Source: Candidatus Heimdallarchaeota archaeon | GTDB lineage: Archaea; Asgardarchaeota; Heimdallarchaeia; Heimdallarchaeales; Heimdallarchaeaceae | Reading direction: 5' to 3' | Length of the DNA stretch: 64,000 nt | Assembly (NCBI GenBank): GCA_021399345.1 | Contig: JAAFKI010000124.1 | Location: 29,521-93,520 of the forward strand | Part shown: positions 1,217 through 22,039 of the stretch, piece by piece | How positions within the stretch are numbered: position 1 is the first letter of the stretch | Layout: each line of letters opens with the position of its first letter | Position numbers and translations under genes: made by a program | The notes under the pieces: generated by a model | Databases searched by the model: none | What the model saw: only the letters and a program-made list of their open reading frames with translations | Told to the model about the DNA's origin: nothing

Positions 1217-1645
1217 ATGAGCAGCGAAAAGCAATCAGTAACGATCGCAAAGATGGTGAAATTAGAGGCTGAAAAGCCAATTGAACTACCAGAAGAATTC
1301 TTATCAGCCCTTAAACCAGATGGCAAAACATTTGCAGTACTTATATTAGCACCAAATACAAGAATTATTAGAATCATTCCAACAAGTACAAATGAGGTTG
1401 CTAAGATTAACATCAACATCGGAAAACTCTCTCCTGACTTCCTTCGTAAAATGGGATCTATCTTCATCAGGCTCGGTATTAAGACACTGTACAGTACAGG
1501 TTTATGTTTTACCCAAAGTGCCTGCGTTTACGAGGGCTACATAGATTCTGATGAACTTAAAGAAGTCAGCATTGACCAAATTAAGGATGAACTTGAGAGA
1601 ATCGAAGGCGTTTCGAGTGTCGAAGTTGATGCCTTAACTGCCTAG
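1217..1645 (+). CDS. Hypothetical small protein; possible AbrB/SpoVT-like N-terminus plus ACT-like C-terminal half
   Basis: 142-aa ORF with a GGAG-containing purine-rich stretch (atggagaat) about 15 nt upstream of the start. The N-terminal part (VKLEAEKPIELPEEFLSALKPDGKTFAVLILAPNTRIIRIIP) looks like a swapped-hairpin DNA binder. The C-terminal part (IGKLSPDFLRKMGSIFIRLGIKTLYSTG...) looks like a small ligand-binding beta-alpha-beta domain. This is impression only. Confidence 0.6.
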   Translation: MSSEKQSVTIAKMVKLEAEKPIELPEEFLSALKPDGKTFAVLILAPNTRIIRIIPTSTNEVAKININIGKLSPDFLRKMGSIFIRLGIKTLYSTGLCFTQSACVYEGYIDSDELKEVSIDQIKDELERIEGVSSVEVDALTA

Positions 1646-1659
1646 AGGAGCGAACCGTC

Positions 1660-2373
1660 TTGGTTCGACGGAGAGTAAAGGAAAAACGTCTCACTTTGCT
1701 TCTCCATCCATTGCGTAGAGAGATTTACCGTCTTGTGTGTGAGACTCCAGGGGCATATTTTTTTGAATTATCTAGTGCTTTAACTGCACCGCATGGTACT
1801 ATTAATTGGCATTTAAGAAAGCTAGAAGAATCTATGCTTATTAAATCTACTAAATTTGGTGGAAAAAGAGTTTATTTTTCTAGAACTTTACGTTCTGAAG
1901 ATGTCGAAAAAGCCTTTGTTGTTCTCAAGCATTCTACAGCAAGGAAAATCTTTGCTTACATTTTGAATAACGAAGGATGTCATCAAACTCTAATAGCTAA
2001 ATCCTTAGGAATTCATCATGACACAGTTCGTCATCACACAGATAGAATGGTACAAGCTAATTTAATATCAAAATTTAGCGTAGGTAGAAAAACTTGCTAT
2101 AAGCTGGATGAAGTGGGTATAAAAATACAAGAAGAAAGTATCAATACTATCTCCAATACATATGTAGCTGCTTTAATGGATATCCTTGAAGAAAATTGTT
2201 TACATCCAGAAATAGAGGAAGTTTCCAAGGATCATTTGACAGTTAGGATAGAATGTCCAGGATCAACTGATGCAACTTTTACAATATCTCTTTCTCAGTG
2301 GACATTTGATGAAGAATGGGAGGAAACTGTACAAATAGATGGTGAAAAAGAAAAAGTTGAGGAAGCAACTTAA
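1660..2373 (+). CDS. Transcriptional regulator with two winged-helix (ArsR-like) domains
   Basis: Two wHTH-like segments: LRREIYRLVCETPGAYFFELSSALTAPHGTINWHLRKLEESMLIK and ARKIFAYILNNEGCHQTLIAKSLGIHHDTVRHHTDRMVQANLISK. TTG start 15 nt after the preceding stop. A T-run follows the stop. Confidence 0.7.
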   Translation: MVRRRVKEKRLTLLLHPLRREIYRLVCETPGAYFFELSSALTAPHGTINWHLRKLEESMLIKSTKFGGKRVYFSRTLRSEDVEKAFVVLKHSTARKIFAYILNNEGCHQTLIAKSLGIHHDTVRHHTDRMVQANLISKFSVGRKTCYKLDEVGIKIQEESINTISNTYVAALMDILEENCLHPEIEEVSKDHLTVRIECPGSTDATFTISLSQWTFDEEWEETVQIDGEKEKVEEAT

Positions 2374-2471
2374 TCTAGAAACATTTTTTTTGTTTTTCCG
2401 TTAGTTTTAATTTCTATCATTAAAATACTTTTATAAGGGAATTTGTCACATAATCTTAAGGAGTGTTAGAC

Positions 2472-3485
2472 ATGAGTTCTAAGGAGAAAACCAAATCTCG
2501 AAAGAGCACAAAGACTTCAAAAACTAGTTTGAAAACGATTTCAACAAAAATTAATGAAATTTACACTAATATGAGTAAAGTGATTGTAGGGCAAAAGGAA
2601 GTAATTAACGCGATGATTACAGCTGTTTTAGCAGACGGTCACGTTTTACTTGAAGGTGTACCAGGAATAGCAAAGACCTTAATGGTTAGAGCACTTGCAA
2701 AAGCAATATCAGCAGATTTCAAAAGAATACAATTCACACCAGATCTGATGCCTTCTGATGTTACAGGAGTAATGGCCTATAAACCAGAAACGGGAGATTT
2801 TTACTTCAAGGAAGGACCGGTATTTACAAACTTGTTACTAGCAGACGAAATTAACAGAGCACCACCAAAAACACAGGCAGCAATGTTAGAGAGCATGCAG
2901 GAAAAACAAGTAACAATAGAAAAGCAAACAACAGCTCTGCCTGATCCATTCATAGTTTTTGCGACTCAGAATCCAATTGAAACTGAGGGGACGTATCCTT
3001 TACCTGAAGCCCAGATTGACAGATTTGCATTCAAGGTTTTAGTTTCCTATCCAGCTGAAGATGAGGAAACTGAGATAGTCAATCGGTTCACTGGAGAATA
3101 TGATTCTTATGATAAACTTGAGGATATTATTCCAGTAATGACTGCTGAGGAAGTAATAAGTTTACAAAAGGTTGTTAGAAAAGAAGTTAGTATTTCTGAA
3201 GAGCTTTCTAAGTATATTGTTAGAATTGTTACTTTAACTAGAGAAAGTGATGAGGTTTACATGGGTGCTAGTCCTCGAGCTAGTCTTTGGATGACCATCT
3301 CAGCTAAAGCATCGGCAGCTATGGATGGAAGAAATTATGTTAATCCTCTTGATATTCAGAAAGTTGCTAAAAATGTTCTTCGTCACAGAGTTCTCATTAA
3401 ACCCGAGTATGAATTCGACGGGACCACTTCAGAGATAATTATTGACAGGATTCTAAAGCATACTCCCGCGCCAAGCATTCAATAA
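2472..3485 (+). CDS. moxR: MoxR-family AAA+ ATPase
   Basis: Walker [12 protein letters not shown], Walker B plus sensor [28 protein letters not shown], and GASPRAS. Length is typical for the family. I prefer ATG at 2472 (AAGGAG 10 nt upstream) over the GTG at 2463 used by the ORF track. Confidence 0.9.
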
Positions 3486-3500
3486 TAGAGATTGAGATAC

Positions 3501-5675
3501 ATGAAGCTAAATCGTAAGTATTTCTTACTACTCGTTATATGTTTAGAAATGGTTATGTTAGTTGGTGGAAGCACCTACATTATCAATGCTAAAACCAATA
3601 ATGTGGTCGCACAAGAAACTGATTTCACAGTCGTAATTTCTAAAGATCAGTACTATTTCAAAAACGATACAATGAGAACAGATGGCTATATCTATTGGGT
3701 TGACTTAAACTCTCCTGGTGGATACCTAACCATCTTTGGGAATACTTCCGATATGTATGAAATCTCTTTTTGGGACGGCTTAGGTGATATGAATGAAGGT
3801 CAAGACTATGAACTTGAACCTGACAGAATAAGGGTGTATCCAAGAACAACTGGTTTAAATTATAAAATTAGGAGCAATTATTATCCTGATTATTTCCTTG
3901 ATACCAATTTTGTAGTAATATTTGACACCTTTTGGGCTCAATTCAGTTATCTAACACCAGATGGAGATGAAAGATATGCTCCAGTAACCTATCACAATAA
4001 ACAATTATTACCTGAGGATGCTGGTCTAGTAAGTTTTGCTCCCACAGATAATGCAATAATTGTTAAAGAGGGCGACTCATTTGGAATAACATGGGATTAT
4101 GAAGAAAGAGCTATGGATCCATTCCATGAACCATTGACATATGAAGTTACTTACAATTTTGATCCAATTTATTTACAGTTTACAGAACAGATGTTCGAAA
4201 ACCAATCTCAACAACAAGAGATTGAACAAGTTGAGAGCTTGTTAAATCTATTACAAATTTACTTCAAACTTATTGCATTTATTGCGATAGCAATTAGCAT
4301 ATTTGCTGCACTTTTTGGTTATTTAAGAGCTAAAAGGAAATTCAAATCCAAGCTCAATGAAGCACGAAGTATGCCAAAAAAGATGTTAAAAGATATTGAA
4401 GCTGAAATAGACCCCCGGAAAAGAGTATCATCGCTCTTCAACGCTTTCTTTATTTTACTTTTAATCTCTCCAGCACTTTATACGAATCAGCAGATAACAA
4501 CCGATATGGATGTTGTAGCAAATAATAAAATGGTTACAATCGAGGGATATACCCCCATCATGTCAGGTGAAAGAGATATTAGGTATGAATCCTCTATCGA
4601 ACTGGGAGCGGATGGAATTGCATTTGAGACAGTTATTATGGAATTACCTTTTACAGTGGATAATTTCAGTATTTGGGCCGATACAGGTTCAGTTTTAGAA
4701 TTCAGAGCATATAATGAATTTCATGCTCCCCTATCTTACCAACAATTCAGCGATAAATATGTAATAAGAAATCTTCAAGGATTTATTGAGTATGAAATAG
4801 TACGACCTTATACATACTATAACAACAGCAACATCTTAGTATATCTTGATTATTTCTGGTTATTATTCGTTGATCCAGAATTGCAAGAAGAATCTCAACC
4901 ACCAATTTATTCAAAGGCAGATATCAAATTTACAGTAATTGTTCCAGAGGGGGCAATATTATACAGTGCATCACCTGAAAGCATTCTAACTCTAAGTCAA
5001 ACTCCAGAAGGTAGAAGAAAAGTAACTTTCACCGATGAAGATAGAGATATCGATCCTTATCATGATTTGTTCTCAACACAGATTACATATTCGTTTATTG
5101 ATGTAATTGAAGCAATAGAAAATCAATCTGCCAGATTTGAACACTTCAGAGTTGAAACAAAAATATCTGAAGAACAGAGGGCTTCTTTAAGTAGAAATCT
5201 TATATTTATCAGTTTATTAGGTTTAATTGCACCTATTCTAGCTTTTCTTTTAACATATTTTATTGTTCGAAGAAGAATGTTAAGAAAAATTCAAGAAGAG
5301 GAGCAAAAATATGAAATGCTTGTTTCAGTTGAAGAAATACAATTGCAGGCTATGAATAGAGCTAAGGAAATAGATGCAGCATCAGAACCATGGAAAGCAA
5401 TGTTGGGTGAGTACTGGGAATTATTAGGATATATTAGCAGGATTGTACCAGTAAACTTACTAGCAGCGCCTGAAGAGCTCCATGAGAGGACTGTCAGACA
5501 ATATATTCCTGCTAACCTTATCACTGAGACTTTAGAGATTCTCTCAGTAGGGGGAGCCCTTTCAAACAGTTGGATAAGTAATGAGCAAATCTACTATAAT
5601 AAACAACAAGCTCGAGATTATTTAGAATCCGTAATGAAATTAATCGAAAAAATAGAAAAATGGAGAAAAGATTAA
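3501..5675 (+). CDS. Membrane protein with an internally duplicated ectodomain (two ~250-aa repeats, each followed by a TM helix) and a helical cytoplasmic tail
   Basis: N-terminal signal/anchor LLLVICLEMVMLVGG. Repeat 1 contains VVIFDTFWAQFSYLTPDG...PEDAGLVSFAPTDNAIIVKEGDSFGITWDYEERAMDPFHEPLTYEVTYNF. Repeat 2 contains LVYLDYFWLLFVDPEL...PEGAILYSASPESILTLSQTPEGRRKVTFTDEDRDIDPYHDLFSTQITYSF. TM helices: IAFIAIAISIFAALFGYL, FNAFFILLLISPALY and LIFISLLGLIAPILAFLLTYFIV. I prefer ATG 3501 over TTG 3492. Confidence 0.75.
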   Translation: MKLNRKYFLLLVICLEMVMLVGGSTYIINAKTNNVVAQETDFTVVISKDQYYFKNDTMRTDGYIYWVDLNSPGGYLTIFGNTSDMYEISFWDGLGDMNEGQDYELEPDRIRVYPRTTGLNYKIRSNYYPDYFLDTNFVVIFDTFWAQFSYLTPDGDERYAPVTYHNKQLLPEDAGLVSFAPTDNAIIVKEGDSFGITWDYEERAMDPFHEPLTYEVTYNFDPIYLQFTEQMFENQSQQQEIEQVESLLNLLQIYFKLIAFIAIAISIFAALFGYLRAKRKFKSKLNEARSMPKKMLKDIEAEIDPRKRVSSLFNAFFILLLISPALYTNQQITTDMDVVANNKMVTIEGYTPIMSGERDIRYESSIELGADGIAFETVIMELPFTVDNFSIWADTGSVLEFRAYNEFHAPLSYQQFSDKYVIRNLQGFIEYEIVRPYTYYNNSNILVYLDYFWLLFVDPELQEESQPPIYSKADIKFTVIVPEGAILYSASPESILTLSQTPEGRRKVTFTDEDRDIDPYHDLFSTQITYSFIDVIEAIENQSARFEHFRVETKISEEQRASLSRNLIFISLLGLIAPILAFLLTYFIVRRRMLRKIQEEEQKYEMLVSVEEIQLQAMNRAKEIDAASEPWKAMLGEYWELLGYISRIVPVNLLAAPEELHERTVRQYIPANLITETLEILSVGGALSNSWISNEQIYYNKQQARDYLESVMKLIEKIEKWRKD

Positions 5676-6352
5676 AAATGAAAACTAAATCAAAAATCTT
5701 CTATTTTATGTTGATATCGCTTCTTATCGCGAGTATATTTCCAGTTTATCATTCAGTTGGGCAAGAAGGTGTGTATACTTCCCCCACATATTCATTTGAA
5801 ATAGATGAAAATACTAATTTCACTGTCGTTTCTCAAGCCCCTCTTACTTGGCAACAAAATCAATATGAAAATATAACAGTCACAATAAAAACTACAGGAT
5901 TAGCAGTAGGTGAGAATCTCTCATTAACTTTGGTTTCTTTCTTTTTTAATTATCCAGAAGATCCAGTTCCTCACTCATCTGGTTCAAAAATAATAAACCA
6001 GAATCTTACACAAATAGATCAAACCTATGAATTTAATAGAACATTTATCCCACCAGATGAAGATAGATTCAATATTACTATCAAGATTATTGCTAATAGT
6101 ACTGGAATTCCTGTTGCTCAGGAGTTTTTTGCTCAATTCCCAGGAGATGAGCCATATATTGAAGTTAAAAAAAGCAAAGCTTTACCCGTAATCAACCTTC
6201 CAGGCTTTCCTGATCCACAGACTTTTGCTAGATGGATATTCATTTTTCTTGTAATTATTGGGATTATATCACTACCATCTATCTTTGTAGCTTATACGAA
6301 AATCCAGGAAACGGTGAAAGGTAGAAAAAAGAAAGGAGAAGATGAGAAATGA
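5660..6352 (+). CDS. Small surface protein with N-terminal signal/anchor and C-terminal TM anchor; unknown family
   Basis: N-terminus KIFYFMLISLLIASIFPVY. The sequon-rich middle has NFT, NIT, NLS, NLT, NRT, NIT and NST. C-terminus WIFIFLVIIGIISLPSIFVAY followed by KGRKKKGEDEK. It overlaps the upstream gene end; an alternative ATG is at 5678. Confidence 0.65.
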   Translation: MEKRLKMKTKSKIFYFMLISLLIASIFPVYHSVGQEGVYTSPTYSFEIDENTNFTVVSQAPLTWQQNQYENITVTIKTTGLAVGENLSLTLVSFFFNYPEDPVPHSSGSKIINQNLTQIDQTYEFNRTFIPPDEDRFNITIKIIANSTGIPVAQEFFAQFPGDEPYIEVKKSKALPVINLPGFPDPQTFARWIFIFLVIIGIISLPSIFVAYTKIQETVKGRKKKGEDEK

Positions 6353-7941
6353 GTTCTGAAGAAACTACAACTCCACTTGAAAGATCTATGAAGAAGATGG
6401 ATGTTCTAATGAGATCGTTTGGACTGAGGACAAGGGTATTCAAAGGCACATCTAGAGCAGTAGTAAAGGGCACACGAAAACTCTATCCTTATGAGTTAAA
6501 TGCCACATTAGTAGAGACAGCTAGAGGAGTTGGAATTCGCGTTAGACTTGAAAAGATCTGGTACACATTCCTCAAACTCACCCCATTCTTTATCGTTATA
6601 CTCTTTTCAATTTTACAAGCAACAGTTCCTGCAGCAGGAGAAAGTATTGCAAGTGCTACAGGAGTAAATTTGTTTTTACTTCTTTTAGGAACAAATTCAA
6701 ATGGCTTAGGTATTTGGATAGCACTACCTATTATAGGATTAATAGTTGTTGGTGCAGAAATTCTAGAAAGAATCATTCGTGCAAAATATATTCAAGATCG
6801 AATGCCTAGATTTCTCAGTGGAGCTGAGTGGACAGTTGCTGAACCACCAGTAGTTCTAGATCTCATTGGTTCCGCAAATAATCTATTTTGGTTAATGTAT
6901 GTTGTACTAATTATTAGCTTTGCACCGATATCCTTCCATGGGGATATATTTGCTAAATTCTTAGAAGTATATGAAGTAGATGCGGGAGCATTGATTGAAA
7001 CTACAAAGTTTATTTCAATCCTGAATATAGGCTTTTTAGGGGGACTTTTGTTTGCAGTTCTTTATCAAAACTATGAAAAATTTAGAGGTAGTCTCGATAG
7101 ACAACAGCTAAGACAGGATATCAAATTTGAGAGCCAAACAAGACAAATGTTTCAGATTGCAATCGGAGCAACAATGTTTGCAACACTAATGCTAGTTGGA
7201 TATTATTTCACATTTTGGTCAGGAATTACTGTGACTCAGGTTTTGATATTTTATGCTGTTACTATAATATCAAGTGTTCTTGGTGTATGGTTATTCTGGC
7301 AAAAAGAAGGCTATATCTTCATCACAATGGCGATTTGGTTCTTCCTAAGTGCGGTTGTAATGATTTTTATGAATGCCAACAATCCATCTTATTCATGGAT
7401 GATTATTTGTAACTTGTTCCTTATTGTTCTAGTAGTAGTTTTATCTCTGAATAGATATTTTACGAAAAATTTGGAAAAGAAAGGAATTCATGAACCAAGC
7501 TGGATGTATAACCTCTTCCCATTATTTGCATTTATTTCAGTACTCATCAAAAAGAAGGTTAGAATATCAAGAGGTGTGGATAAAGAACTTGATGAGATTC
7601 TAGAAGAGGAAATGAAGGATAGAGTAAAAGAGAAAGAACCGCTAGTTATCGACATGGGTAAAGTTAAGAAGAAAGGAAAAGAATCTATAAAAATTATTCA
7701 AACCTATCAAAAAATACTCTCAAGAATTGTCAAGGGTGAGGTTAACATTGTGTCTCTTGTCGGTCTTAATAATCTTGTTTTAGATATAATTAAAGACGAT
7801 AAGAAATTACACAAGGAAGCAATTCAAGTTTTCAAAGTAGTAGATAGTTTACTTTGGGATGATAATTATGTTTTGAAACAAGGTGAAACTATTCTGACTT
7901 CTGCAACAAACATCTATGAAGAACTTGTAAAACAAAGGTGA
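6349..7941 (+). CDS. Polytopic membrane protein with ~70-aa N-terminal and ~130-aa charged C-terminal soluble regions; unknown family
   Basis: ATGA start/stop overlap with the upstream gene. There are many hydrophobic helices, e.g. LTPFFIVILFSILQ, GIWIALPIIGLIVVGAEIL, FWLMYVVLIISFAPI, VLIFYAVTIISSVLGVWLFW and IFITMAIWFFLSAVVMIF. The tail is K/E-rich. Confidence 0.7.
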   Translation: MSSEETTTPLERSMKKMDVLMRSFGLRTRVFKGTSRAVVKGTRKLYPYELNATLVETARGVGIRVRLEKIWYTFLKLTPFFIVILFSILQATVPAAGESIASATGVNLFLLLLGTNSNGLGIWIALPIIGLIVVGAEILERIIRAKYIQDRMPRFLSGAEWTVAEPPVVLDLIGSANNLFWLMYVVLIISFAPISFHGDIFAKFLEVYEVDAGALIETTKFISILNIGFLGGLLFAVLYQNYEKFRGSLDRQQLRQDIKFESQTRQMFQIAIGATMFATLMLVGYYFTFWSGITVTQVLIFYAVTIISSVLGVWLFWQKEGYIFITMAIWFFLSAVVMIFMNANNPSYSWMIICNLFLIVLVVVLSLNRYFTKNLEKKGIHEPSWMYNLFPLFAFISVLIKKKVRISRGVDKELDEILEEEMKDRVKEKEPLVIDMGKVKKKGKESIKIIQTYQKILSRIVKGEVNIVSLVGLNNLVLDIIKDDKKLHKEAIQVFKVVDSLLWDDNYVLKQGETILTSATNIYEELVKQR

Positions 7942-7945
7942 AATA

Positions 7946-8887
7946 ATGTCAGTAGCAGGTGAACCAAAAACTGTGAAAGAGAAGAAAGATAGCGTTAAAA
8001 TACCTCTGAAGAAGCTAAGGAGATTGGAGATTCTTGCCAAAGAAAAAACTACTAGCTTCCTTCAAGGACATAGACGATCCATCTTTCGAGGACCTGGTAC
8101 TGAATATGCAGATTTAAGAGAGTATATTGAGGGTGATGATCTCAGATTTGTAGATTGGAATGCTTCATCCAGAGTTCCTTTCAAATTGATAGTTAGGGAC
8201 TATGAACAAGAGAGGAATACAAATGTCATATTAATGTTAGATACTAGTTATTCTATGTTACTGGGTGAACCAAATCCCAGAATTAAAATGGCAGTAGAAG
8301 CAATAGCCACCCTTGCATATACTGTTATGAATAACAGAGATAATTTTGGATGGGTTTCTTTCTCAGAAAAAATACACAAATATATTCCTGCTAGAGGTGG
8401 AAAAACACACCTTTATCATATTTTTAATGAAATGTTGAAGATTGCTCCATTTGGTAGCACAAATATAGGCGAAACTGTAAAAGAAATTGCTTTAGCTCAG
8501 AAGAGAAGATCGATTATAATAATACTTACCGACCTTCATGGCAATCTTGAGGAAGCAATGGATGGGTTCAAGGTTGCCAATGTTAAGCATCACGATTTTA
8601 AACTGTTTCATATTCATGATCCTGAAGAATTTTTATTTCCTAAAAACCCTAGACAAGTAAAATACCAAGATCCTGAAACAGGAGAAATAAAAACAGTTAA
8701 TTTGAGTAATTTACTTGAAAGAGGAAAGTTCATGTATGAGCTCGGCCTCGAGATTAGAAAAATTAATGAATTTAAGCGAAAGGTTAGAGGTTTAAATATA
8801 GAAGTGATAGATGCGCCAACAACTGTTCTAACAGAAAAATTATTGCTTACTTATTTTGGTTCAAAGAGGAGAGGACTAGTAAGATGA
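7946..8887 (+). CDS. DUF58-family protein (vWA-like fold, MIDAS motif present); the classical MoxR partner
   Basis: Hallmark RGPGTEYADLREYIEGDDLRFVDWNASSRVPFKLIVRDYEQERNTNVILMLDTSYSM, where DTSYS matches DxSxS. Later IIIILTDLHG. It starts 4 nt after the previous stop. Confidence 0.88.
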   Translation: MSVAGEPKTVKEKKDSVKIPLKKLRRLEILAKEKTTSFLQGHRRSIFRGPGTEYADLREYIEGDDLRFVDWNASSRVPFKLIVRDYEQERNTNVILMLDTSYSMLLGEPNPRIKMAVEAIATLAYTVMNNRDNFGWVSFSEKIHKYIPARGGKTHLYHIFNEMLKIAPFGSTNIGETVKEIALAQKRRSIIIILTDLHGNLEEAMDGFKVANVKHHDFKLFHIHDPEEFLFPKNPRQVKYQDPETGEIKTVNLSNLLERGKFMYELGLEIRKINEFKRKVRGLNIEVIDAPTTVLTEKLLLTYFGSKRRGLVR

Positions 8888-10746
8888 AATACGTTCGAGT
8901 CAAGTCTCTATTTATTCTACTGTTAATCATAACCTCAAGCAATTTCATCATTATCACAACAATTGAGTACGCAATTGCTGGGAGTCCTAGTTCAGGAGAT
9001 ATTCCTCCTCCAGACGGAGGAGGTGAAGATACAAGTGGTGGGAGTTCCGCTGGAGGATTATATATGAATTATAGAATTCCTTTAGTAATAAAATCAGGTC
9101 CATTTGGTCCCACATTGATAACAATCAATACTTTCTATGATGGAGTTCCGATAATCTTTGGTTTCGAATCTATAGAACATGGAAATGAAACCATTTTAAA
9201 CCAAAATGAAACATTGGTAATCAATCCCTTGTTTGAACCTAATCTAGTAAATGGGTCTTTGATTCAAACCTTTGCACCACTTCAAATTAATATATATCAT
9301 CCATTTAGTAATTCAACCTTTGATGATACATTTTCCTATTCCCCCTTAGTCATGTCTATGTGGGGAAGGCATTATCAAAGTCAGTATGACAATATGAAAG
9401 CAATGATAGTAGCAGGAATTAATTCAACGGATATCACAATTACAAATCCCGGAGAAAATCCTGAGTTTTATGATTTACCACTTATAGGAGACACTTTGGA
9501 ATTAGATGTACAAAAGGGTACGATTATTGAATCCACTAATCCAATTGGAGTGGTTTTTTATTCTCTCTCAATTACTGAAGGATCATTTGCATACAATGCA
9601 ATTCCCCGTTTTTTGTGGGGAAAAGAGTATTATGTATACCCAGCACAAGAAATTGATTCAATCCCGCTTTTACAAGGTGATACTGAACTCACTATATCTA
9701 CAATAGGCGAGGGGGAAACTATTCATCCTATAACAAGTAATCTGAATGATCCTATAGAGGATTTACCTGAAAATGGAGTAGTAACGCTTTCTAATAGTGG
9801 TCTTGCTGCAGGTGAGTTTTACCACTATATTACTAGTAATTATATAAATTTCTCATTAACATTAATGTACAATTATACTTTTAATGGAACAACTCATAAA
9901 GCAACAGTTCAATACATGGCATCAGAAAAAATGACTTATGCTGAATGGTACTTAACTGCTTTAAGTTATAAAAACCAAGAACTCGGTATTATTATTCATA
10001 GAGAAGAATCTTGGATAATTCCAATGATATTAGAAGATAATGGAACTATTTACTATGATATTGGAGGATATGTTGAAAAGAATCTTGGTGATTCATTTAC
10101 CCATATTTGGAATAATTCTCTTGGTATTTTTGCAAATGGTTCATTCCATGGTTTTCTTTTAACTTCACCCCCAGAATCAGCCAATTGGAACAGTTCTGCC
10201 AACAATCTCTACCCACTCAATTTATTATCACACTTTGACAACACATCTACCTTCTTTCCATCTTGGTACAGATTCCCCAATTTAAATGTAAGAGAAGTAT
10301 TTGTAAGTCCAACAAATCCTACAGAATTCAGGAGACTTCAATTAGATATTATTGTTCAGAATAATGGTTCAGTACCTTCTGCTCCTTTTTGGGTAAGGGT
10401 AGTTGTCAATGATACAATAAGAATCAACAAAAAAGTTGAAGGGGGGCTTGACGTAATGGAAGCGATCCCAATCATTTTTGAAGAGTTTCAAGGATTCGGA
10501 CTGAAGGTTTGGAATATTTCCATTTTTACAGATTCTGAAAGTCAAATATATGAGCTTCACGAGTTTGATAATTCTTATCAATTATTTATTGAAGTAACTA
10601 GAAATTGGAATATAGTTTACACTGGTATTGCTATAGCAGTTGCGATAGTATCTTTCATCATTTATAAAATTACCAAAAGATTAAGAAAATCAAGAAGGAG
10701 AAGAAAAACACAGTTTGATGTAATACTGAGTGATATTGAGGTTTAA
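8884..10746 (+). CDS. Large sequon-rich surface protein with a CARDB-like beta-sandwich near a C-terminal TM anchor; otherwise unknown
   Basis: ATGA overlap with the DUF58 gene. N-terminal anchor LFILLLIITSSNFIIITT, then a Gly-rich linker PPPDGGGEDTSGGSSAGG. More than 15 N-x-S/T sequons. NVREVFVSPTNPTEFRRLQLDIIVQNNGSVPSAPFWVRVVVND resembles CARDB. The C-terminus is YTGIAIAVAIVSFIIY followed by KITKRLRKSRRRRK. Confidence 0.7.
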   Translation: MKYVRVKSLFILLLIITSSNFIIITTIEYAIAGSPSSGDIPPPDGGGEDTSGGSSAGGLYMNYRIPLVIKSGPFGPTLITINTFYDGVPIIFGFESIEHGNETILNQNETLVINPLFEPNLVNGSLIQTFAPLQINIYHPFSNSTFDDTFSYSPLVMSMWGRHYQSQYDNMKAMIVAGINSTDITITNPGENPEFYDLPLIGDTLELDVQKGTIIESTNPIGVVFYSLSITEGSFAYNAIPRFLWGKEYYVYPAQEIDSIPLLQGDTELTISTIGEGETIHPITSNLNDPIEDLPENGVVTLSNSGLAAGEFYHYITSNYINFSLTLMYNYTFNGTTHKATVQYMASEKMTYAEWYLTALSYKNQELGIIIHREESWIIPMILEDNGTIYYDIGGYVEKNLGDSFTHIWNNSLGIFANGSFHGFLLTSPPESANWNSSANNLYPLNLLSHFDNTSTFFPSWYRFPNLNVREVFVSPTNPTEFRRLQLDIIVQNNGSVPSAPFWVRVVVNDTIRINKKVEGGLDVMEAIPIIFEEFQGFGLKVWNISIFTDSESQIYELHEFDNSYQLFIEVTRNWNIVYTGIAIAVAIVSFIIYKITKRLRKSRRRRKTQFDVILSDIEV

Positions 10747-10749
10747 TAA

Positions 10750-13011
10750 ATGACATCACCAGAGCCTGAACAAGTAAAGAACTTTTCTACAAGAATAAGG
10801 CAATTCCTCAATAAATTTTGGAAGAATTTTAAAGCTAAAGGTGTTCTACCAAAGGATCAATATGAATCATTTAGTGTAATTCTAGGAAGAGACTTAGTTT
10901 TTATGGATTGGACTATTCAATTTGGTGGGCAACTTCTAGGTATTCTTCTAGGAGCTTTGGTAAGTTTTCTTATTGGTGCAAATCTCTTCAAAGATCTCTT
11001 TGGTGCAAGTGAATCTATAAATCCAAACTCTTACATCTCACTTTATGTTGGAACTTTACTAGCAGTCGTAGGTTTATCTGTATATTATATAATGAAACTT
11101 GGGATTAGAATTAACACACCTAAAAAAATAGCTAAAAATAAATTCAACACAGCCAAAGTAGCATTTTTTGGTCTTTCGTTTGTTTTTGGTTTATCTTATT
11201 TGTATAATACTTTCTTGGAACCAGCTGTTAACAAAATTGCCGGCATTGTGAATCCTTTGGATCCAAATGGAGGAGATCCTGGAAATGGAGGAGGGGGAGT
11301 TGATTGGCAGTCAACAAATCAATACATAATTCTTATAGCTTCTATTTTAGCAGCAGCAGCAGTATTTGCTCTTCTTTATTCCGGAATAATGTATTCGATG
11401 AACAAGAAAGTTGGAACAATAGATGGAGTAGCTATTATTGCAGCGTCTACATTATTGATGTTCTATTTATTATCACAGTTTTCAATGCCTCAATATTTAA
11501 TCGAGGCATTTCAAACTAAATCATATTCACTGCTCTTACCCTTACTAAATGATATTCTATATTATTCGCTTATTGCATTTGTAACAATAATGGTTTATCA
11601 CCTAAGCAGGAGAATTGAGTTATCTATCATCATATTGTTCCTTGGTTTTGCATTTGGATATGAAACCACAAATATTGTTGAGTTTCTTATTATTTTAAAA
11701 TGGGATTTTCCCGAGAAATCGTATATTTCAGCTACTTTAATCAAAACTTTGCAAGGGTTACAATATGCAGGTTTAGCAGGAATGATTGCATATCCTCTGG
11801 TTTTCTATAGAGACACAGCAGCATTCTTTAGGAAAGCATATGTAACAATTAGAAATCAGGGACTGGTTTTATTTGTATTCTTCTTAGTAGTGCTTGTAAT
11901 CGAAATAATATTGCAATTTATTTTTACATACCTAGGTATTTTATTCTCACTTATTATTTTCATTGTTCTAGTTGGCGTGGTTAATTCACTTATTACGAAA
12001 AAATATGGAAAGCAAAGCTTTACAGGTTTGTTGTCAACAATGTCTCAGGCAACTCTCCAGATGGGTGAATCTGTGATTCCTACATTGAAAAAGCAAACTA
12101 AATTTCTTGAGGAAAAATCGATCAGAAGAAGATTGACCACCGTGATTTTAGGAACTACAATTCCTTTAGCTCTATATTTTGGTATTATGTATCTAACGAC
12201 AGCGATAACTGAGCAAACAGTTATTGGTACAACAGTATTTCTGTATACAGCTGTTCCTATTTCTATTGGGTTCATCGCATTTTCATTGAGTTACCTCTGG
12301 GTTAAGAATCCAATTATAAGAAGTAATTTTAATTATCAATATCCTCTAAAAATAGCTGGATTGATTGGAGGAATTTTTTACTTCTTCTATGCAGTTAATG
12401 GTTTAATCTACAATAGAGTAGGAGTATATCCCTTAATTGCTCTTTTCTATATACCAATAGTTTTGATAGCTGTTTTTAGAAAAGATAAACTAGGTACTTT
12501 GTTACTCTCTTTAGCTGGTGATAATAAAGATACAGCACTCAAAGAGCTACTCCTCAGGAGGGATTTAGATATTCCTTCTTTAGATGAGAAATTTTACAAA
12601 TCTCCACCTTACCTAAAAACTTGGCTTGCCTTGATTTTGACAAAACGAGGAGAAAAAGCTCAAACTTCTCAGAATCTTGTATCAATGCTAACAAGTAGCT
12701 TTCCATTAGAAAGGGCAACAGGTGCTTTGTGCATACTTTATCTAAATGATAAAGATACTATGGAAAGAGTAATTAAAATTCTTGAAAGTGATTCTGATCC
12801 TAGAGTTAGAGATGCCATAGCCTATGGTATTAGATATTTTGATGATCTTCCTGAAGAAATTTACAAAAGAATCATCGACTCCCAACACTATGAAGATGAT
12901 GCTAAAGTACTTGAAACACTGAAAGAAACCATTTCTTCTTTGGATATAAGGTTCTCTGCTGAGGAAAAAGAAGAGGAAGTGGAACTAGAAGAGTATTTTG
13001 AGGAAATTTAG
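10750..13011 (+). CDS. Large polytopic membrane protein (>12 predicted helices) with C-terminal cytoplasmic HEAT-like repeats
   Basis: Starts 3 nt after the previous stop. Hydrophobic helices run through aa ~55-575, with a Gly-rich loop DPNGGDPGNGGGGVDW. The C-terminal region ESDSDPRVRDAIAYGIRYFDDLPEE plus preceding helical repeats looks like HEAT/PBS-lyase repeats. The tail is acidic. Confidence 0.7.
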   Translation: MTSPEPEQVKNFSTRIRQFLNKFWKNFKAKGVLPKDQYESFSVILGRDLVFMDWTIQFGGQLLGILLGALVSFLIGANLFKDLFGASESINPNSYISLYVGTLLAVVGLSVYYIMKLGIRINTPKKIAKNKFNTAKVAFFGLSFVFGLSYLYNTFLEPAVNKIAGIVNPLDPNGGDPGNGGGGVDWQSTNQYIILIASILAAAAVFALLYSGIMYSMNKKVGTIDGVAIIAASTLLMFYLLSQFSMPQYLIEAFQTKSYSLLLPLLNDILYYSLIAFVTIMVYHLSRRIELSIIILFLGFAFGYETTNIVEFLIILKWDFPEKSYISATLIKTLQGLQYAGLAGMIAYPLVFYRDTAAFFRKAYVTIRNQGLVLFVFFLVVLVIEIILQFIFTYLGILFSLIIFIVLVGVVNSLITKKYGKQSFTGLLSTMSQATLQMGESVIPTLKKQTKFLEEKSIRRRLTTVILGTTIPLALYFGIMYLTTAITEQTVIGTTVFLYTAVPISIGFIAFSLSYLWVKNPIIRSNFNYQYPLKIAGLIGGIFYFFYAVNGLIYNRVGVYPLIALFYIPIVLIAVFRKDKLGTLLLSLAGDNKDTALKELLLRRDLDIPSLDEKFYKSPPYLKTWLALILTKRGEKAQTSQNLVSMLTSSFPLERATGALCILYLNDKDTMERVIKILESDSDPRVRDAIAYGIRYFDDLPEEIYKRIIDSQHYEDDAKVLETLKETISSLDIRFSAEEKEEEVELEEYFEEI

Positions 13012-13054
13012 TTTCTCGCAATTATTTTTTCACTTACCAAAGAAAAGAAGAGAA

Positions 13055-13741
13055 TTACTTCAGAATTATTCGTGCATCTACAGGGAATAAACCATCCTCA
13101 TTTGCAATTATTGGATTAATATCCATTTCTGCAATATACTCCTTATATTCCCATGCCAATTCTGAAAGTTTTACAATCAAATTAGAAAGTTCTTCTTTAT
13201 TCACCTTTGGCATTCCTCTGAAACCTTCTAACAAAACCCTTGCTTTGATTTCTTCAATAGCTTGTAATGCTTGTGGTTGAGTTGTTGGACACAAACGAAA
13301 AACCACATCCTTGATTGCTTCAACCATGACTCCCCCTACACCAAATAGAATGACAGGGCCAAAAGTTGGATCAGTATTTGTTCCTATAATCAATTCAAGG
13401 CCTTTACCAACCATTTTTTCAACAAGAACACCTGCAACATCAACACTTGAAAATCTATTCATAAAATCATCAAATGTTGATTTTACTTCCTCTTCTGATT
13501 GTAGATTTACTACAACTGCATCATAGTCTGTTTTATGGATAACTTCAATCGACATCAACTTCATAACTACGGGATATCCAAATTTGCTAGCTGCTTCTAT
13601 AGCTTCTTCTTTTGTTTTCACTAGAGTAGAAGGAGGAACAATTATCCCCATTTTTCTCAATATCATTTTTGCTTCATGTTCTAGAACAGCTTTCCTCTGT
13701 TCTGATTGGATTATTGTAAATATTTCTTTTATTCCACTCAT
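13055..13741 (-). CDS. acdB: ADP-forming acetyl-CoA synthetase, beta subunit (ATP-grasp)
   Basis: 228 aa, immediately downstream of the alpha subunit with a 2-nt gap. Contains YPVVMKLMSIEVIHKTDYDAVVVNL, LIIGTNTDPTFGPVILFGVGGVMVE and DINPIIA, which are typical of ACD beta. Confidence 0.85.
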   Translation of the reverse strand: MSGIKEIFTIIQSEQRKAVLEHEAKMILRKMGIIVPPSTLVKTKEEAIEAASKFGYPVVMKLMSIEVIHKTDYDAVVVNLQSEEEVKSTFDDFMNRFSSVDVAGVLVEKMVGKGLELIIGTNTDPTFGPVILFGVGGVMVEAIKDVVFRLCPTTQPQALQAIEEIKARVLLEGFRGMPKVNKEELSNLIVKLSELAWEYKEYIAEMDINPIIANEDGLFPVDARIILK

Positions 13742-19495: not shown

Positions 19496-22039
19496 ATGAC
19501 AGATTCTTTACCTCCTGAAATAGCTGCTCATAGAAACCGCATCAGTCCAGAATTAGCAGATTTTATTATTAAAGCACTTCAAGGAGAATTTACATCAGAA
19601 GCCTCTAAACAAATAGGGAGAATTTTATGGAATGTTATTGATGATCCTGTCTATGAGAAAGATGAAGAATTAAGGTATCTAGCAAGCAAAATAGGTGTAA
19701 TGACAGGGCAATATGATTTAGCTATCAAAGCGATTACAGATGATATCGTAGGTACAAAAGTATGGGGAAGTGTTGCTCTTTTCGAAATTGGTGAGGTTGA
19801 TGAAGCTATCTCTACATTACAGCAAATAATAGAAAAGGAAACATCAGACTTTATGCCTCTGATAGAAGCCATTTTTTGGTTGGTATATCTGAAGCATTTA
19901 ATTGGTGATTCAGAAAATATTGACAGTTACAAAACCATTTTAGAGGATATCTTTGATCCTCGAAATACGAGAAGAATACATCAACAAATTCAAGACATAA
20001 AGGATTTCACTGAAGGATTAATCGATCTTCAATCTGCAAGCAATATAGCAGGCTTAAAGAAAATTGAAGAATTTATTCACAAAAGAGAAAATGCAGGAGA
20101 TCAATTTTGGCAACTAATAGGACTATTAATACTTGGAGAACAACAACTTGATTCCTCTGATTATATTGCCTCAAATAAAATATATGTTAAAGCAAGAGTT
20201 TTAGCAGAAAACATATCTAATGTTCCTCTAATAGGAGCCGTTGATATCGGTTTAGCTCATGTTCATTTTCTCAAAGGAGAACTAAAAGCGGGAAATATAC
20301 TATCTGCACAAACAAATGATAAATTGCAGGGAATTTCTCAGTATTATCTGGCTAAAGGACATTTTGTTAGAGGACAGATAATGATTAAATTGGGTCATCA
20401 TAAGATGGCAAGAGATAGCCTTAATGCTGCTTATTCACTTGCTAACCATTATCATGATTACAATAAATCATTCATAACTCTTTTAGCTATTGCAGAAAGC
20501 TATGCAATTACCAATGAAAAGGATAAGGCTCAAGAGATTTTTGATAAAGCTTACAATCAAGTCGTAAATATAGGAAACAAAAGGCAATTTGCTCAAGCAT
20601 TGGTGCAAATTGCTACCAGCGATTATAGGCAGGGAAAGTTTGATTCAGCACTAAAACGAGCAGATCAAATTGAAACATTATCAGAGGAGATACAATATCA
20701 AAAAGGAAAAACAGATGCTTTACGCCTAAGATCTCAAATTAATATAACTCGAAATAATGAAGTAGATAGAAACATCTTTACTCTTCTTGCCTGCCAGATT
20801 CTATATTTGGAAGTTGGCGATGAGGATAGTAGTGCTAACTGTGATATCTTAATAGCAGAAGGCTATACAAAGCTAGGTAATTCTCGAAAAGCAGCAATCC
20901 ATTTAAATAATGCGAAAAACTTCTTCTTAAGAATTTCAGATAGTATGAAGATTGCAGAAATTAAAGAACTTCAAGCTTCATTTGATATAAATGATGGTAA
21001 ATTCGATGAAGCTTTAGTTAAACTTAGATCCTCTTATAGTCATTACTCTGATGTGTTTGATCGTAATAAACGAGTAGGATGTTTACGAAAAATAGCAGAC
21101 ATTTTAGCTCTGAAAGGAGATTTCAGAGAGAGTTTAGCAAGATATACGAAGGTACAAGGCCTCATAAGTGAAAACAATGATATGGTTGATAATGTTGTAC
21201 TCCAGCTCAACAAAGCTAGAATTAGTCAGTATGCGAGTAAAACTGATATTGCTCAAGAGAGCTACAAATTTGTAGAGAGGTATTTAAGAGAAAATAAACT
21301 TAAAACTTTATTGGGGCAAATTTTGGTTGAAAAAACACTAATGTATATTGTTGAAGATAAAGAAGAGCTTGCAACTGAAATAATGTCTCAGATTCAAGAA
21401 TTAGCCAAAGAGGGTTATGACGACTTTAAATACTGGTATTGTTATCTTGAAGCCCTTAGGAATATAAAATCAGGCGAGTATGTTAAAGCTTATTCTGACC
21501 TTACAAGTATTCTTCAGCAAACTTTGGAAAAGAACAATATTATTTCAATAGGAATTCTATTCAATCTAATTCGTCTCGTGATTGAGATAAACGAAGAAAA
21601 CCTTGCAGATTTGTTTGTTTATCAGGAAGTAAATAACTACATTGTTCTGCTGAAGGGGATTGTAACTGAAGGAAACTTCTACTATCTAAGAGGAATTACT
21701 TTTTTGGTCGATTTATTATGGCAATTCATGTCTGAAATTGAGAGTGACTATAATGAAATAGTTGTTCAAGCTTCTGAATATTTTGCAAGCACAGGAATAG
21801 AAGAGTTTGGGAATCTACTTCTAACATTACAATATAATATAGGAGATTGGGAAGGGCAAACTGAATCCAGAATTAGAACAATTTTAGGGGCCCCCAAAAC
21901 ATATGAATCTCCAAAAATAGCTTTGTTAGAGATTCTTGAGAAGTCCAATAAATCACTATTTATAGAAGAAATTCTAAGAACAGAGAACAGATTCTTAAAA
22001 GAGATTAAGTCCTTGAAAGAAGCTAAAGATAAAAAATAG
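19496..22039 (+). CDS. Large cytoplasmic TPR/helical-repeat protein
   Basis: 847 aa with no TM helix. Contains repeated ~34-40-aa helical-pair units with the A/G/Y pattern of TPRs, e.g. YLAKGHFVRGQIMIKLGHHKMARDSLNAAYSLA, AIAESYAITNEKDKAQEIFDKAY and LIAEGYTKLGNSRKAAIHLNNA. Confidence 0.7.
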   Translation: MTDSLPPEIAAHRNRISPELADFIIKALQGEFTSEASKQIGRILWNVIDDPVYEKDEELRYLASKIGVMTGQYDLAIKAITDDIVGTKVWGSVALFEIGEVDEAISTLQQIIEKETSDFMPLIEAIFWLVYLKHLIGDSENIDSYKTILEDIFDPRNTRRIHQQIQDIKDFTEGLIDLQSASNIAGLKKIEEFIHKRENAGDQFWQLIGLLILGEQQLDSSDYIASNKIYVKARVLAENISNVPLIGAVDIGLAHVHFLKGELKAGNILSAQTNDKLQGISQYYLAKGHFVRGQIMIKLGHHKMARDSLNAAYSLANHYHDYNKSFITLLAIAESYAITNEKDKAQEIFDKAYNQVVNIGNKRQFAQALVQIATSDYRQGKFDSALKRADQIETLSEEIQYQKGKTDALRLRSQINITRNNEVDRNIFTLLACQILYLEVGDEDSSANCDILIAEGYTKLGNSRKAAIHLNNAKNFFLRISDSMKIAEIKELQASFDINDGKFDEALVKLRSSYSHYSDVFDRNKRVGCLRKIADILALKGDFRESLARYTKVQGLISENNDMVDNVVLQLNKARISQYASKTDIAQESYKFVERYLRENKLKTLLGQILVEKTLMYIVEDKEELATEIMSQIQELAKEGYDDFKYWYCYLEALRNIKSGEYVKAYSDLTSILQQTLEKNNIISIGILFNLIRLVIEINEENLADLFVYQEVNNYIVLLKGIVTEGNFYYLRGITFLVDLLWQFMSEIESDYNEIVVQASEYFASTGIEEFGNLLLTLQYNIGDWEGQTESRIRTILGAPKTYESPKIALLEILEKSNKSLFIEEILRTENRFLKEIKSLKEAKDKK

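Follow-up and report, generated by a model that had tools for sequence, protein, structure and literature searches.

MoxR-type AAA+ ATPases and DUF58 proteins form one of the most widespread gene pairs of obscure function in prokaryotes, and the clients on which they act are known in few cases. What such a pair may do at the envelope of an archaeal cell is the question raised by a locus of Candidatus Heimdallarchaeota, found in a stretch of 64,000 nucleotides (assembly GCA_021399345.1, contig JAAFKI010000124.1, positions 29,521 to 93,520) that will be referred to as the window. Seven open reading frames (ORFs) on the same strand, g1 to g7, lie at 2463-13011 (+) of the window; g1 encodes a MoxR ATPase, g5 a DUF58 protein, and the other five encode membrane or surface proteins. 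An earlier note, made from the DNA alone, had described these seven packed genes, and the ORFs are found where it placed them. It had also called the five partners unclassifiable, which is too strong: g3 and g4 have indeed no assignment, whereas g2, g6 and g7 can be assigned in fold or domains. The operon is a conserved unit restricted to one lineage, and the reading that is preferred here, with a rough probability of 0.45, is that it encodes a Heimdallarchaeia-specific envelope machine for the biogenesis, assembly or remodelling of N-glycosylated surface proteins.

Occurrence and conservation of the operon

A scan of one genome per GTDB species, with the DUF58 protein as query, returned 27 loci of the Heimdallarchaeaceae type, including those of the complete genomes of Candidatus Heimdallarchaeum endolithica and Candidatus H. 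aukensis. Gene set and order are identical in all 27, as far as the contigs reach. Taken alone, this synteny is weak evidence for a unit, the flanking genes being syntenic too. The evidence is more telling in distant loci, because every flanking gene differs there: the same seven genes are found in the same order, among wholly different neighbours, in L035/L036, L038, L039, L042 (from the named Kariarchaeaceae) and L043 (on a contig of 2.85 Mb), and these relatives, which belong to Kariarchaeaceae and to unnamed lineages, add at least three unrelated flanking contexts. Compared with the window, the distant copies are 59-64% identical in MoxR, 42-52% in DUF58, 31-36% in g2, 23-32% in g3, 22-27% in g4 and 24-26% in g6, and their g7 is recognisable by profile comparison only. 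That the seven genes form a conserved unit is borne out by a gene order that recurs across Heimdallarchaeia genomes even where all flanks differ. The order is thus not unique to one genome, and none of the partners maps to a Bat-type family.

In one variant, L037 (GCA_964645535.1, 6149-12534), the operon comprises only five genes, in the order MoxR-g2-g3-g4-DUF58, with g6 and g7 missing. Because this locus has the five-gene set only, MoxR, g2, g3, g4 and DUF58 are regarded as the core of the operon, and g6 and g7 as an accessory pair that travels together. The L037 operon, which encodes P0075, is flanked on both sides by genes for small GTPases of the Arf/Ras/Roc type; an older record of this protein is labelled Euryarchaeota. 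The source labels of the other members are Heimdallarchaeota, Heimdallarchaeaceae or Kariarchaeaceae, with Promethearchaeati (L032) and Thorarchaeota (L013, P0126) as further exceptions. The window closely matches contigs from Heimdallarchaeota metagenomes, and an identical DUF58 protein is found on four of them. A 39-residue ORF is called between MoxR and g2 at 3626-3745 of L038, and in L038 alone.

An exhaustive HMMER (phmmer) search of 1.84 billion representative proteins, with g2 joined to g4 as the query, gave only 44 matches, all of them in two small families, one g2-like (706-780 residues, 35-40% identity) and one g4-like (513-541 residues, 21-28% identity); among these representatives, no relatives of g2 or g4 are found beyond this narrow clade. 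The distant members came from this search, and a profile search with the g4 alignment returned close relatives only. All DUF58 proteins encoded in the operon fall into one clade with identities of 42-98%, followed by a sharp drop, from 42% to about 30%, to the other DUF58 proteins returned. Outside the clade, the nearest DUF58 proteins found, which are about 30% identical, belong to classical bacterial MoxR-DUF58-BatA/vWA (von Willebrand factor A) operons, and L034 is likewise of this kind. Median identities within the operon are 84% for MoxR, 84% for DUF58, 69% for g4, 68% for g2, 58% for g7, 56% for g6 and 48% for g3, the slowest-evolving proteins being the cytoplasmic ones (MoxR and DUF58) and the fastest the exposed ones (g3 and g6).

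The motor and its adaptor

The product of g1 (2472..3485 (+), 337 residues from the ATG at 2472) is a MoxR-type AAA+ ATPase, as had been proposed from its motifs. It matches the Pfam families AAA_3 (6.8e-65, 217.3 bits; cut-off 27) and AAA_lid_2 (6.7e-19, 67.8 bits; cut-off 22.7) above their curated cut-offs, and the Walker A (GVPGIAKT), Walker B (LLLADE) and GASPR motifs are legible in its translation. The product of g5 (7946..8887 (+)) is a cytoplasmic DUF58 protein of vWA fold that harbors no transmembrane segment by hydropathy. Its Pfam matches to DUF58 (1.5e-36, 126.1 bits; cut-off 23.4) and VWA_2 (3.7e-10, 40.8 bits; cut-off 27) are accompanied by a complete metal-ion-dependent adhesion site (MIDAS) of the form DxSxS...T...D, whose DxSxS codons lie at 8240-8254; none of its residues (D99, S101, S103, T172 and D196) varies among 31 orthologues, some of which are only 42-52% identical. 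The earlier description of a DUF58 protein with an intact MIDAS therefore holds. To judge from their sequences, the MoxR motor and the DUF58 adaptor are both canonical and intact.

The membrane partners

The core membrane protein g2 (3501..5675 (+); 724 residues from the ATG at 3501, or 727 from a TTG at 3492) consists of a signal anchor, a first beta-ectodomain, a transmembrane segment, a conserved basic cytoplasmic loop, a second transmembrane segment, a second beta-ectodomain, a third transmembrane segment and a four-helix cytoplasmic domain. Its two halves are homologous (BLASTP E = 1e-11, 27% identity) and their alignment extends through the transmembrane segment, in agreement with the duplicated ectodomain noticed earlier. 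In an AlphaFold2 (AF2) model built from 11 family members, with a mean predicted local distance difference test (pLDDT) value of 74.8, the beta-ectodomains (residues 47-222 and 363-534) reach values near 90, and the four-helix cytoplasmic domain spans residues 633-726. When this model was compared with the PDB by Foldseek, the best eight matches were all human RPN1 or yeast Ost1, that is, ribophorin I (E = 3e-13 to 2e-9, probability 1.00), as verified by searching the PDB sequences with human RPN1. The best scorer is human RPN1, which bears a cytosolic helical domain. The next matches are 3kd4 and about forty N-terminal domains of M1 aminopeptidases, at about 1e-5. On this model, the ectodomains of g2 would belong to the Ost1/M1-N fold class, in an overall layout like that of RPN1, and g2 cannot be recognised as belonging to the Ribophorin_I family. 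Sequence-detected homologues of Ost1 have been reported to be widespread in Asgard archaea (PMC8813620, PMC10307638, PMC11417166). As these surveys already find sequence-detectable Ost1 there, g2 is probably a second, separate family, and because its repeat unit includes a transmembrane helix of its own, its duplication probably occurred independently of that of Ost1. Ost1 was not found mapped to individual genes in the supplementary material of Wu et al. 2022 or Eme et al. 2023.

The cytoplasmic loop of g2 carries the sequence D301-I-E303 (codons 4392..4400 (+)), a candidate acidic motif for docking to the DUF58 MIDAS; D301 and E303 are at least 90% conserved in a family whose overall identity is 30-60%. 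A DUF4129 domain, which occurs in actinobacterial MoxR clusters, was considered for the C-terminal tail of g2 and dropped, as no Pfam match appears at E <= 1 to 10. In the ectodomains of g2, enrichment in N-glycosylation sequons is not significant; for this and the other ectodomains, 2000 residue shuffles were made per region.

Searches of Pfam, NCBIfam and PADLOC covered the seven proteins and about 25 orthologues and were empty for g2, g3 and g4. By hydropathy, g3 (5660..6352 (+); 230 residues, or 224 from the ATG at 5678) is a bitopic, doubly anchored protein with a sequon-rich ectodomain, a juxtamembrane L-x-G-F-P motif in which G182, F183 and P184 are invariant, a transmembrane helix and a basic tail. 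Its ectodomain has 7 sequons, where 1.8 are expected (P about 0.001), and a search of the PDB with g3 is as empty as those of the family databases. The polytopic g4 (6349..7941 (+), 530 residues) is predicted by AF2 to combine a cytoplasmic N-terminal four-stranded beta-domain, about eight transmembrane helices and a cytoplasmic C-terminal helical domain. The model, from a 26-sequence alignment, is confident (pLDDT 83.8, predicted TM-score 0.72), and its comparison with the PDB by Foldseek gives nothing at E <= 1e-3, the best match having E = 0.3 and a TM-score of at most 0.15. The invariant residues of g4 are R12, E56, T57, G60, R144, A159, W161 and W503, with no Cys or His among them. It was also considered whether the L-P-G-F-P sequence of g3 might be a signal of the PGF-CTERM kind, with g4 or g7 as the archaeosortase. 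This idea was rejected: there is no exosortase or archaeosortase match in Pfam or NCBIfam, g4 lacks conserved Cys or His, and the tail of g3 is far longer than that of PGF-CTERM.

The accessory protein g6 (8884..10746 (+), 620 residues) has a signal peptide, a linker rich in Gly, Ser and Pro, an IgGFc_binding-like beta region (Pfam, 8.3e-6), a membrane-proximal CARDB domain, a transmembrane helix and a short cytoplasmic tail. The CARDB-like module proposed by the earlier note falls below the Pfam cut-off in the window protein (PF07705; 1.5e-3, 19.1 bits, cut-off 22.7) and is clear in orthologues (23.9, 38.4, 41.4 and 29.4 bits; best E 1.5e-9 to 1.7e-10), and the family profile matches the CARDB structures 2l0d (1.5e-7), 3idu and 2kl6 in the PDB. 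The ectodomain contains 16 sequons against 6.9 expected (P about 0.001), so that the sequon-rich character attributed earlier to both g3 and g6 is significant, and in both the enrichment is retained in orthologues. At the C-terminus, the cytoplasmic peptide FDVILSDIEV (codons 10714..10743 (+)) is a candidate docking motif. It is nearly unchanged in all 21 of 21 Heimdallarchaeaceae orthologues, with conservative D/E, I/V/M, F/Y and L/F swaps only, while the ectodomain is just 46-56% identical in many of them; in distant orthologues the C-terminus is still acidic and hydrophobic. Strains that are otherwise nearly identical differ most in g6 (87-88% identity against 92-99% for its neighbours, in L007 and L009). 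In the ENA copy L001 the gene caller gives a g6 product of 377 residues and tblastn finds the 3' part only, which may reflect either faulty assembly or a true difference.

The second accessory protein, g7 (10750..13011 (+), 753 residues), is a polytopic membrane protein with more than 12 transmembrane segments. Its core, at about residues 190-290, is of a degenerate CPBP/Rce1-like type, and its C-terminal part is a HEAT (alphaRep-like) domain that lies in the cytoplasm and has an acidic end. The HEAT repeats, already suspected, are weak in the window protein (HEAT_2, 6.7e-4) and reach about 2e-11 in orthologues. The Pfam Rce1-like family (PF02517) is not matched by the window protein, whereas its orthologue in L038 reaches 22.4 bits, a score equal to the cut-off, and that in L042 reaches 20.0 bits; these distant proteins align with the window family over 653 collinear columns (hhalign, Prob 98.2%, E = 4.9e-14). 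Sequence or profile searches of the PDB with g2, g3 and the L038 g7 gave only HEAT/alphaRep matches and a chance match to USP25. From the Pfam scores and the hhalign alignment, g7 would descend from a CPBP/Rce1-like membrane protease fold combined with HEAT repeats. The CPBP motifs EExxxR, FxxxH and HxxxN are not present in the window protein: the position of EExxxR, which reads EEYLLRG in L038, is occupied by FALLYSG, and the window protein has no counterpart to the His positions that lie farther downstream in L038. EExxxR is also lost in the g7 of L039 and reduced in that of L035. Given FALLYSG at this position, the window g7 is, as far as its sequence tells, a catalytically dead derivative.

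The membrane topologies given in the earlier note agree with hydropathy and the AF2 models. When g3 and g2, g6 and g2, g3 and g6, and g4 and g2 were compared by hhalign, only transmembrane or signal segments aligned, and no homology beyond these is detected.

Organization and expression signals

The junctions between the seven genes range from -16 to +15 nt. The first, between g1 and g2, is +15 nt, counted to the g2 ATG at 3501, and the second, between g2 and g3, is a 16-nt overlap, or +2 if g3 begins at the ATG at 5678; distant g3 orthologues keep this start and not the earlier one. The remaining junctions are -4 (ATGA) for g3/g4, +4 for g4/g5, -4 (ATGA) for g5/g6 and +3 for g6/g7. The figures of the earlier note were correct, although it had fused the first two junctions into one. 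It had also let the operon begin at 2463, where the ORF of g1 does open with a GTG. The likelier start of g1 is, however, the ATG at 2472, because a GGAG motif at 2460-2463, taken as the ribosome-binding site, and this ATG are retained across Heimdallarchaeaceae genomes.

Some 35-50 nt upstream of this ATG lies the sequence AAAATAC-T-TTTATAAG (2422..2437 (+)), a candidate B recognition element (BRE) and TATA box, the box TTTATAAG itself occupying 2430-2437. An alignment made by eye shows A(A/T)A(T/C)(A/G)xTTTATAAG in nearly all Heimdallarchaeaceae loci, and the arrangement of TATA box, GGAG and ATG occurs 5' of g1 only, which is consistent with a promoter role. Farther upstream, 3' of the preceding helix-turn-helix (HTH) gene, a T-run (TTTTTTTTGTTTTT, 2384..2397 (+)) was read in the sequence, and most Heimdallarchaeaceae loci have one at the equivalent place. 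It looks like an archaeal terminator, and as such it would part the operon from the upstream genes. At the other end, a T6 run at 13025..13030 (+), 14 nt past the stop codon of g7, is a possible terminator before the convergent ATP-grasp gene. The junctions within the operon are too short to hold a promoter, and the seven genes are probably transcribed as one operon. A scan for promoters and terminators of the bacterial type gave matches at or under the expectation from shuffled sequence; the window is AT-rich, with a G+C content of about 34%, and contains no RNA genes.

Proposed function and alternatives

The envelope machine proposed here would be driven from the cytoplasm, by analogy with NorQ/NorD, CbbQ/CbbO, RavA/ViaA and midasin (PMC13036017, PMC7159879, PMC3495828). 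The MIDAS of DUF58 would clamp an acidic residue in a cytoplasmic segment of a membrane partner, the MoxR hexamer would pull on DUF58, and the resulting conformational change would be passed across the membrane to the extracellular side, where the two ribophorin-I/M1-aminopeptidase-type beta-domains of g2 would handle polypeptides. The sequon-enriched g3 and g6 would serve as clients or as structural components, and g7 as a protease-derived scaffold that is protease-active in at most some lineages. The model has the ATP consumed in the cytoplasm, as the outside of the cell offers none. The best-conserved parts of the five membrane proteins are cytoplasmic (in g2 the D-I-E loop and the tail, in g4 both termini, in g6 the tail and in g7 the HEAT domain), and these parts could face MoxR and DUF58. 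The earlier note had suggested, by analogy, a chaperone or metal-insertion module: the former role of the MoxR/vWA pair is consistent with precedent, and the latter finds no support, since no metalloenzyme is encoded in the operon.

Several observations weigh against this proposal. Every functional step in it is taken by analogy, and g4, a core component, offers no analogue from which a function could be read. No gene for AglB/STT3 or a glycosyltransferase is linked to the operon among the called genes of the loci examined, the window beyond the operon having been sampled only. The likeness of g2 to Ost1 comes from one AF2 model built from 11 sequences, and the global TM-scores between g2 and Ost1/RPN1 are just 0.19-0.32, because the arrangement of the domains differs. 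The match over two domains may even be the sum of two single-domain matches, as the likeness between the two halves of g2 exceeds what would be expected between either half and Ost1. At the sequence level, Pfam Ribophorin_I (PF04597) is matched neither by the window g2 (E <= 0.1) nor by six diverse orthologues (E <= 1-10), a comparison of the g2 family with human RPN1 by hhalign is not significant (Prob 0.8%), and a profile search of the PDB with g2 gives 0 matches.

It could be argued that g2 is nevertheless the genuine Ost1 of this lineage, and that the operon encodes accessory parts and an assembly chaperone of an AglB/oligosaccharyltransferase (OST)-translocon, with MoxR and DUF58 maturing or regulating the N-glycosylation machinery. 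The eight top structural matches of g2, headed by human RPN1, agree with this, as do the sequon enrichment of g3 and g6, the layout and ribosome binding of Asgard Ost1 (PMC11417166) and the finding that Heimdallarchaeia have the fullest set of OST subunit homologues (PMC10307638). However, surveys of Asgard Ost1 rest on sequence searches (PMC8813620, PMC11417166), yet g2 and its six orthologues never match Ribophorin_I, and the exhaustive phmmer search found no Ost1 from other Asgard lineages or eukaryotes. Moreover, g2 has an extra transmembrane hairpin and an internal repeat that looks independently duplicated, g4 matches no OST, TRAP or Sec61 chain in the PDB, and no AglB gene is linked, which together make this explanation decidedly unlikely. 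Even a little less probable is the broader idea that g2 is a true relative of ribophorin I and the operon an ATP-powered archaeal accessory complex of the translocon/OST type, in which MoxR-vWA would couple ATP hydrolysis to the handling of nascent glycoproteins across the membrane. A rather unlikely alternative, of which the published proposal of a MoxR-vWA pair with a membrane peptidase is the model (MoxR-vWA-YebA; PMC3495828), is membrane-proximal proteolysis or quality control. Here DUF58 would recruit the substrate, MoxR would unfold or extract it, the CPBP domain of g7 would cleave it, and the beta-domains of g2, whose fold is also part of M1 peptidases, would recognise misfolded extracellular polypeptides. 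The Rce1-like scores of Kariarchaeaceae-type g7, the EEYLLRG of L038 and the end-to-end homology of the window g7 with these proteins speak for this alternative, but the catalytic motifs are lost or reduced as described above, and the searches reveal no further peptidase domain in the seven proteins. The variant L037, reduced to the five-gene core, has no g7, which rules out proteolysis as the core function.

The remaining two explanations are far less probable. The operon might be a strongly diverged Bat/aerotolerance operon whose BatA/B, BatC/E and BatD partners have changed past recognition: its closest DUF58 relatives found outside the clade sit in bacterial MoxR-DUF58-BatA/vWA operons, L034 having the same arrangement, and BatD-like proteins are also surface-anchored and beta-rich. 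This is highly improbable, as no vWA, BatA N-terminal, TPR or BatD domain is found in the partners at E <= 1 among about 30 proteins scanned, as the g2 and g4 families are without relatives outside the clade among the 1.84 billion representatives, and as the DUF58 clade is set apart by its sharp identity gap among the proteins returned. Equally hard to credit is a MoxR-vWA conflict or anti-virus system in which the membrane proteins serve as sensors or effectors. A secondary match of MoxR to Pfam bpMoxR (2.6e-11) and the variability of the exposed g6 between near-identical strains could be read in its favour, and a CPBP/Abi-like fold is present in some abortive-infection proteins. Against it, no effector, VMAP, iSTAND, FtsH or beta-propeller domain is found, PADLOC gives only trivial AAA+ matches, and the single-copy operon is surrounded by housekeeping genes and was found in each relative whose locus extends far enough, whereas defence islands are typically patchy and mobile.

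Significance

Eukaryotes are currently placed within Heimdallarchaeia, and ribophorin I is a eukaryotic signature protein of the N-glycosylation/translocon complex. A predicted ribophorin-I-like fold that is encoded together with MoxR and DUF58, in an operon confined to Heimdallarchaeia, is therefore of note, as is a core protein, g4, that is modelled confidently and has no solved structural counterpart. The sharply defined and conserved partner set provides concrete candidates for the target of the MIDAS: in g2 the loop with D-I-E, in g6 the tail FDVILSDIEV and in g4 the cytoplasmic domains. The short conserved acidic motifs make the client question testable. If the link of the envelope machine to surface glycoproteins is true, the operon would represent a new archaeal way of spending cytoplasmic ATP on work outside the cell and would add to the picture of the pre-eukaryotic secretory system; if it is false, a well-delimited new set of families is still at hand for structural and genetic work. 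Should g2 be a true relative of ribophorin I, a ribophorin-related complex confined to the archaeal class that is the presumed source of eukaryotes would bear on the origin of the accessory machinery of the endoplasmic reticulum translocon and OST. To the AAA+ domains of midasin and dynein, no prokaryotic protein is described as more closely related than MoxR itself (PMC3495828).

The neighbourhood of the operon

Directly upstream of the operon, at 1660-2373 (+), lies the gene of a double winged-helix regulator of the HVO_0163_N / HTH_24 type, which may regulate the operon. It is inverted, with its neighbours in place, in two Candidatus Heimdallarchaeum genomes (L031 3661-4362 (-); L033 3619-4317 (-)). 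It is preceded at 1217-1645 (+) by the gene of a 142-residue protein without any family or PDB match that is extraordinarily conserved in Heimdallarchaeaceae: its median identity is 98.6% and 76% of its columns are invariant in 19 genomes, far above the adjoining MoxR and DUF58 (about 84%). This gene is always found 5' of the HTH gene and the operon in Heimdallarchaeaceae, and not so in Kariarchaeaceae-type loci. The latter have a conserved trio 3' of the operon (L035 16724-21593; L038 13383-18167; L042 9778-15487), made up of a protein of 557-584 residues, an apolipoprotein-like helical protein of 432-463 residues and a protein of about 1475 residues. The first of them matches AAA_16 in L035 and, weakly, in L042, whereas the L038 copy has no recorded family. 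Upstream of the operon, L035 and L038 encode a zinc-ribbon protein. The window contains no homologues of the trio or zinc-ribbon genes and no paralogues of the operon.

Convergent with the end of the operon, an ATP-grasp gene at 13055-13741 (-) has a paralogue, about 40% identical, at 27051-27734 (-); both appear to encode subunits of the ADP-forming acyl-CoA synthetase type. A urocanase gene (27926-29815 (+)) and two divergent genes for aromatic-amino-acid (histidine/phenylalanine) ammonia-lyases (53801-55324 (-) and 55490-57031 (+)) point to histidine degradation. A 546-residue protein encoded at 32431-34071 (-) matches Peptidase_C13, the legumain/glycosylphosphatidylinositol (GPI)-transamidase family (2.3e-6, 27.8 bits; cut-off 22.8), which is mostly eukaryotic. 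The rest of the sampled window consists of housekeeping genes, such as those for RtcB, the glycine cleavage P-protein and the thermosome.

Comparison with known systems

A literature search returned no paper linking MoxR with Heimdallarchaeota or with ribophorin. The Bat operon of Bacteroides and Leptospira, with the related bacterial MoxR-DUF58-BatA/vWA operons, resembles the one described here in its leading MoxR (AAA_3), its DUF58 gene, its membrane or surface partners and its obscure biochemical function, and the closest DUF58 relatives found outside the clade sit in such operons. Unlike it, the operon of the window has no membrane-anchored vWA protein, no TPR protein and no BatD domain, its g2, g3 and g4 separate DUF58 from MoxR, and its five partners are families restricted to Heimdallarchaeia. 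No match to BatA or VWA appears at E <= 1 in g2, g3, g4, g6, g7 and their orthologues (about 30 proteins), whereas L034 and L041 show these domains clearly, and no operon protein has a TPR or BatD family match. The view of the earlier note that this is not a Bat operon is upheld, because the defining partners were tested for and are absent. A TPR protein is encoded at 19496-22039 of the window, 6.5 kb off, with other genes between it and the operon.

A three-gene operon of MoxR, vWA and a YebA-like transglutaminase-like peptidase, found in archaea and bacteria, has been proposed to act on proteins at the membrane (PMC3495828). It is similar in that MoxR and a vWA/DUF58 protein are joined by a polytopic protein of about eight transmembrane segments. 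However, the g4 described here, also with about eight segments, has neither a transglutaminase-like domain nor conserved Cys or His, no Transglut_core-type match is found by Pfam in the operon proteins and their orthologues, and the only peptidase-related fold is the mostly inactivated CPBP domain of g7. As far as the available part of its description goes (PMC8430577), the bifidobacterial PFNA cluster (pkb2-fn3-aaa_atp-duf58-tgm) also places MoxR and DUF58 beside an Ig-like (FN3) surface protein and a membrane protein; compared with this part, the present operon lacks a Ser/Thr kinase, an FN3 domain and a transglutaminase, and its lineage is archaeal. In the MoxR-vWA ternary conflict systems, as defined by Kaur et al. 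2020 (PMC7159879), a third core component would be VMAP, an inactive STAND protein, FtsH or a beta-propeller fused to the vWA protein, accompanied by effector domains; neither these components nor effector domains are found here by Pfam, and PADLOC gives trivial or weak AAA+ matches only.

Two of the partners can be compared with families outside the MoxR world. Like Ost1/ribophorin I, g2 is predicted to have two tandem extracytoplasmic beta-sandwich domains, a transmembrane anchor and a four-helix cytoplasmic domain, and Asgard Ost1 has been described as a ribosome-binding protein in which an extracellular part, a transmembrane segment and a cytosolic four-helix bundle follow each other (PMC11417166). 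Unlike Ost1, g2 shows no detectable sequence similarity to that family, has an extra transmembrane hairpin and a conserved cytoplasmic loop between its beta-domains, is encoded with MoxR and DUF58 instead of AglB, and has halves that are 27% identical to each other, suggesting a separate duplication. The CPBP/Rce1-like intramembrane glutamic proteases (CAAX protease, Abi) are approached by the Kariarchaeaceae-type g7, which aligns with PF02517 over the core helices at or below the cut-off and keeps EExxxR in L038, whereas the window g7 misses both the Pfam model and the catalytic motifs, is far larger, with more than 12 transmembrane segments, and carries a cytoplasmic HEAT domain.

The operon is therefore not a Bat, MoxR-vWA-transglutaminase, PFNA or ternary conflict system, and would work like a MoxR-vWA chaperone system. 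Its motor and adaptor follow the same logic as NorQ/NorD, CbbQ/CbbO, RavA/ViaA and midasin, with the MIDAS residues intact. In NorQ/NorD, a finger of the vWA protein enters the AAA+ pore, and the membrane-protein client is remodelled by a twisting or stretching of the vWA protein (PMC13036017). The clients of this class are defined enzymes or complexes, namely NOR (nitric oxide reductase), Rubisco, respiratory complexes and pre-ribosomes, whereas no enzyme client is encoded here, and the candidate clients are the membrane and surface proteins of the operon itself.

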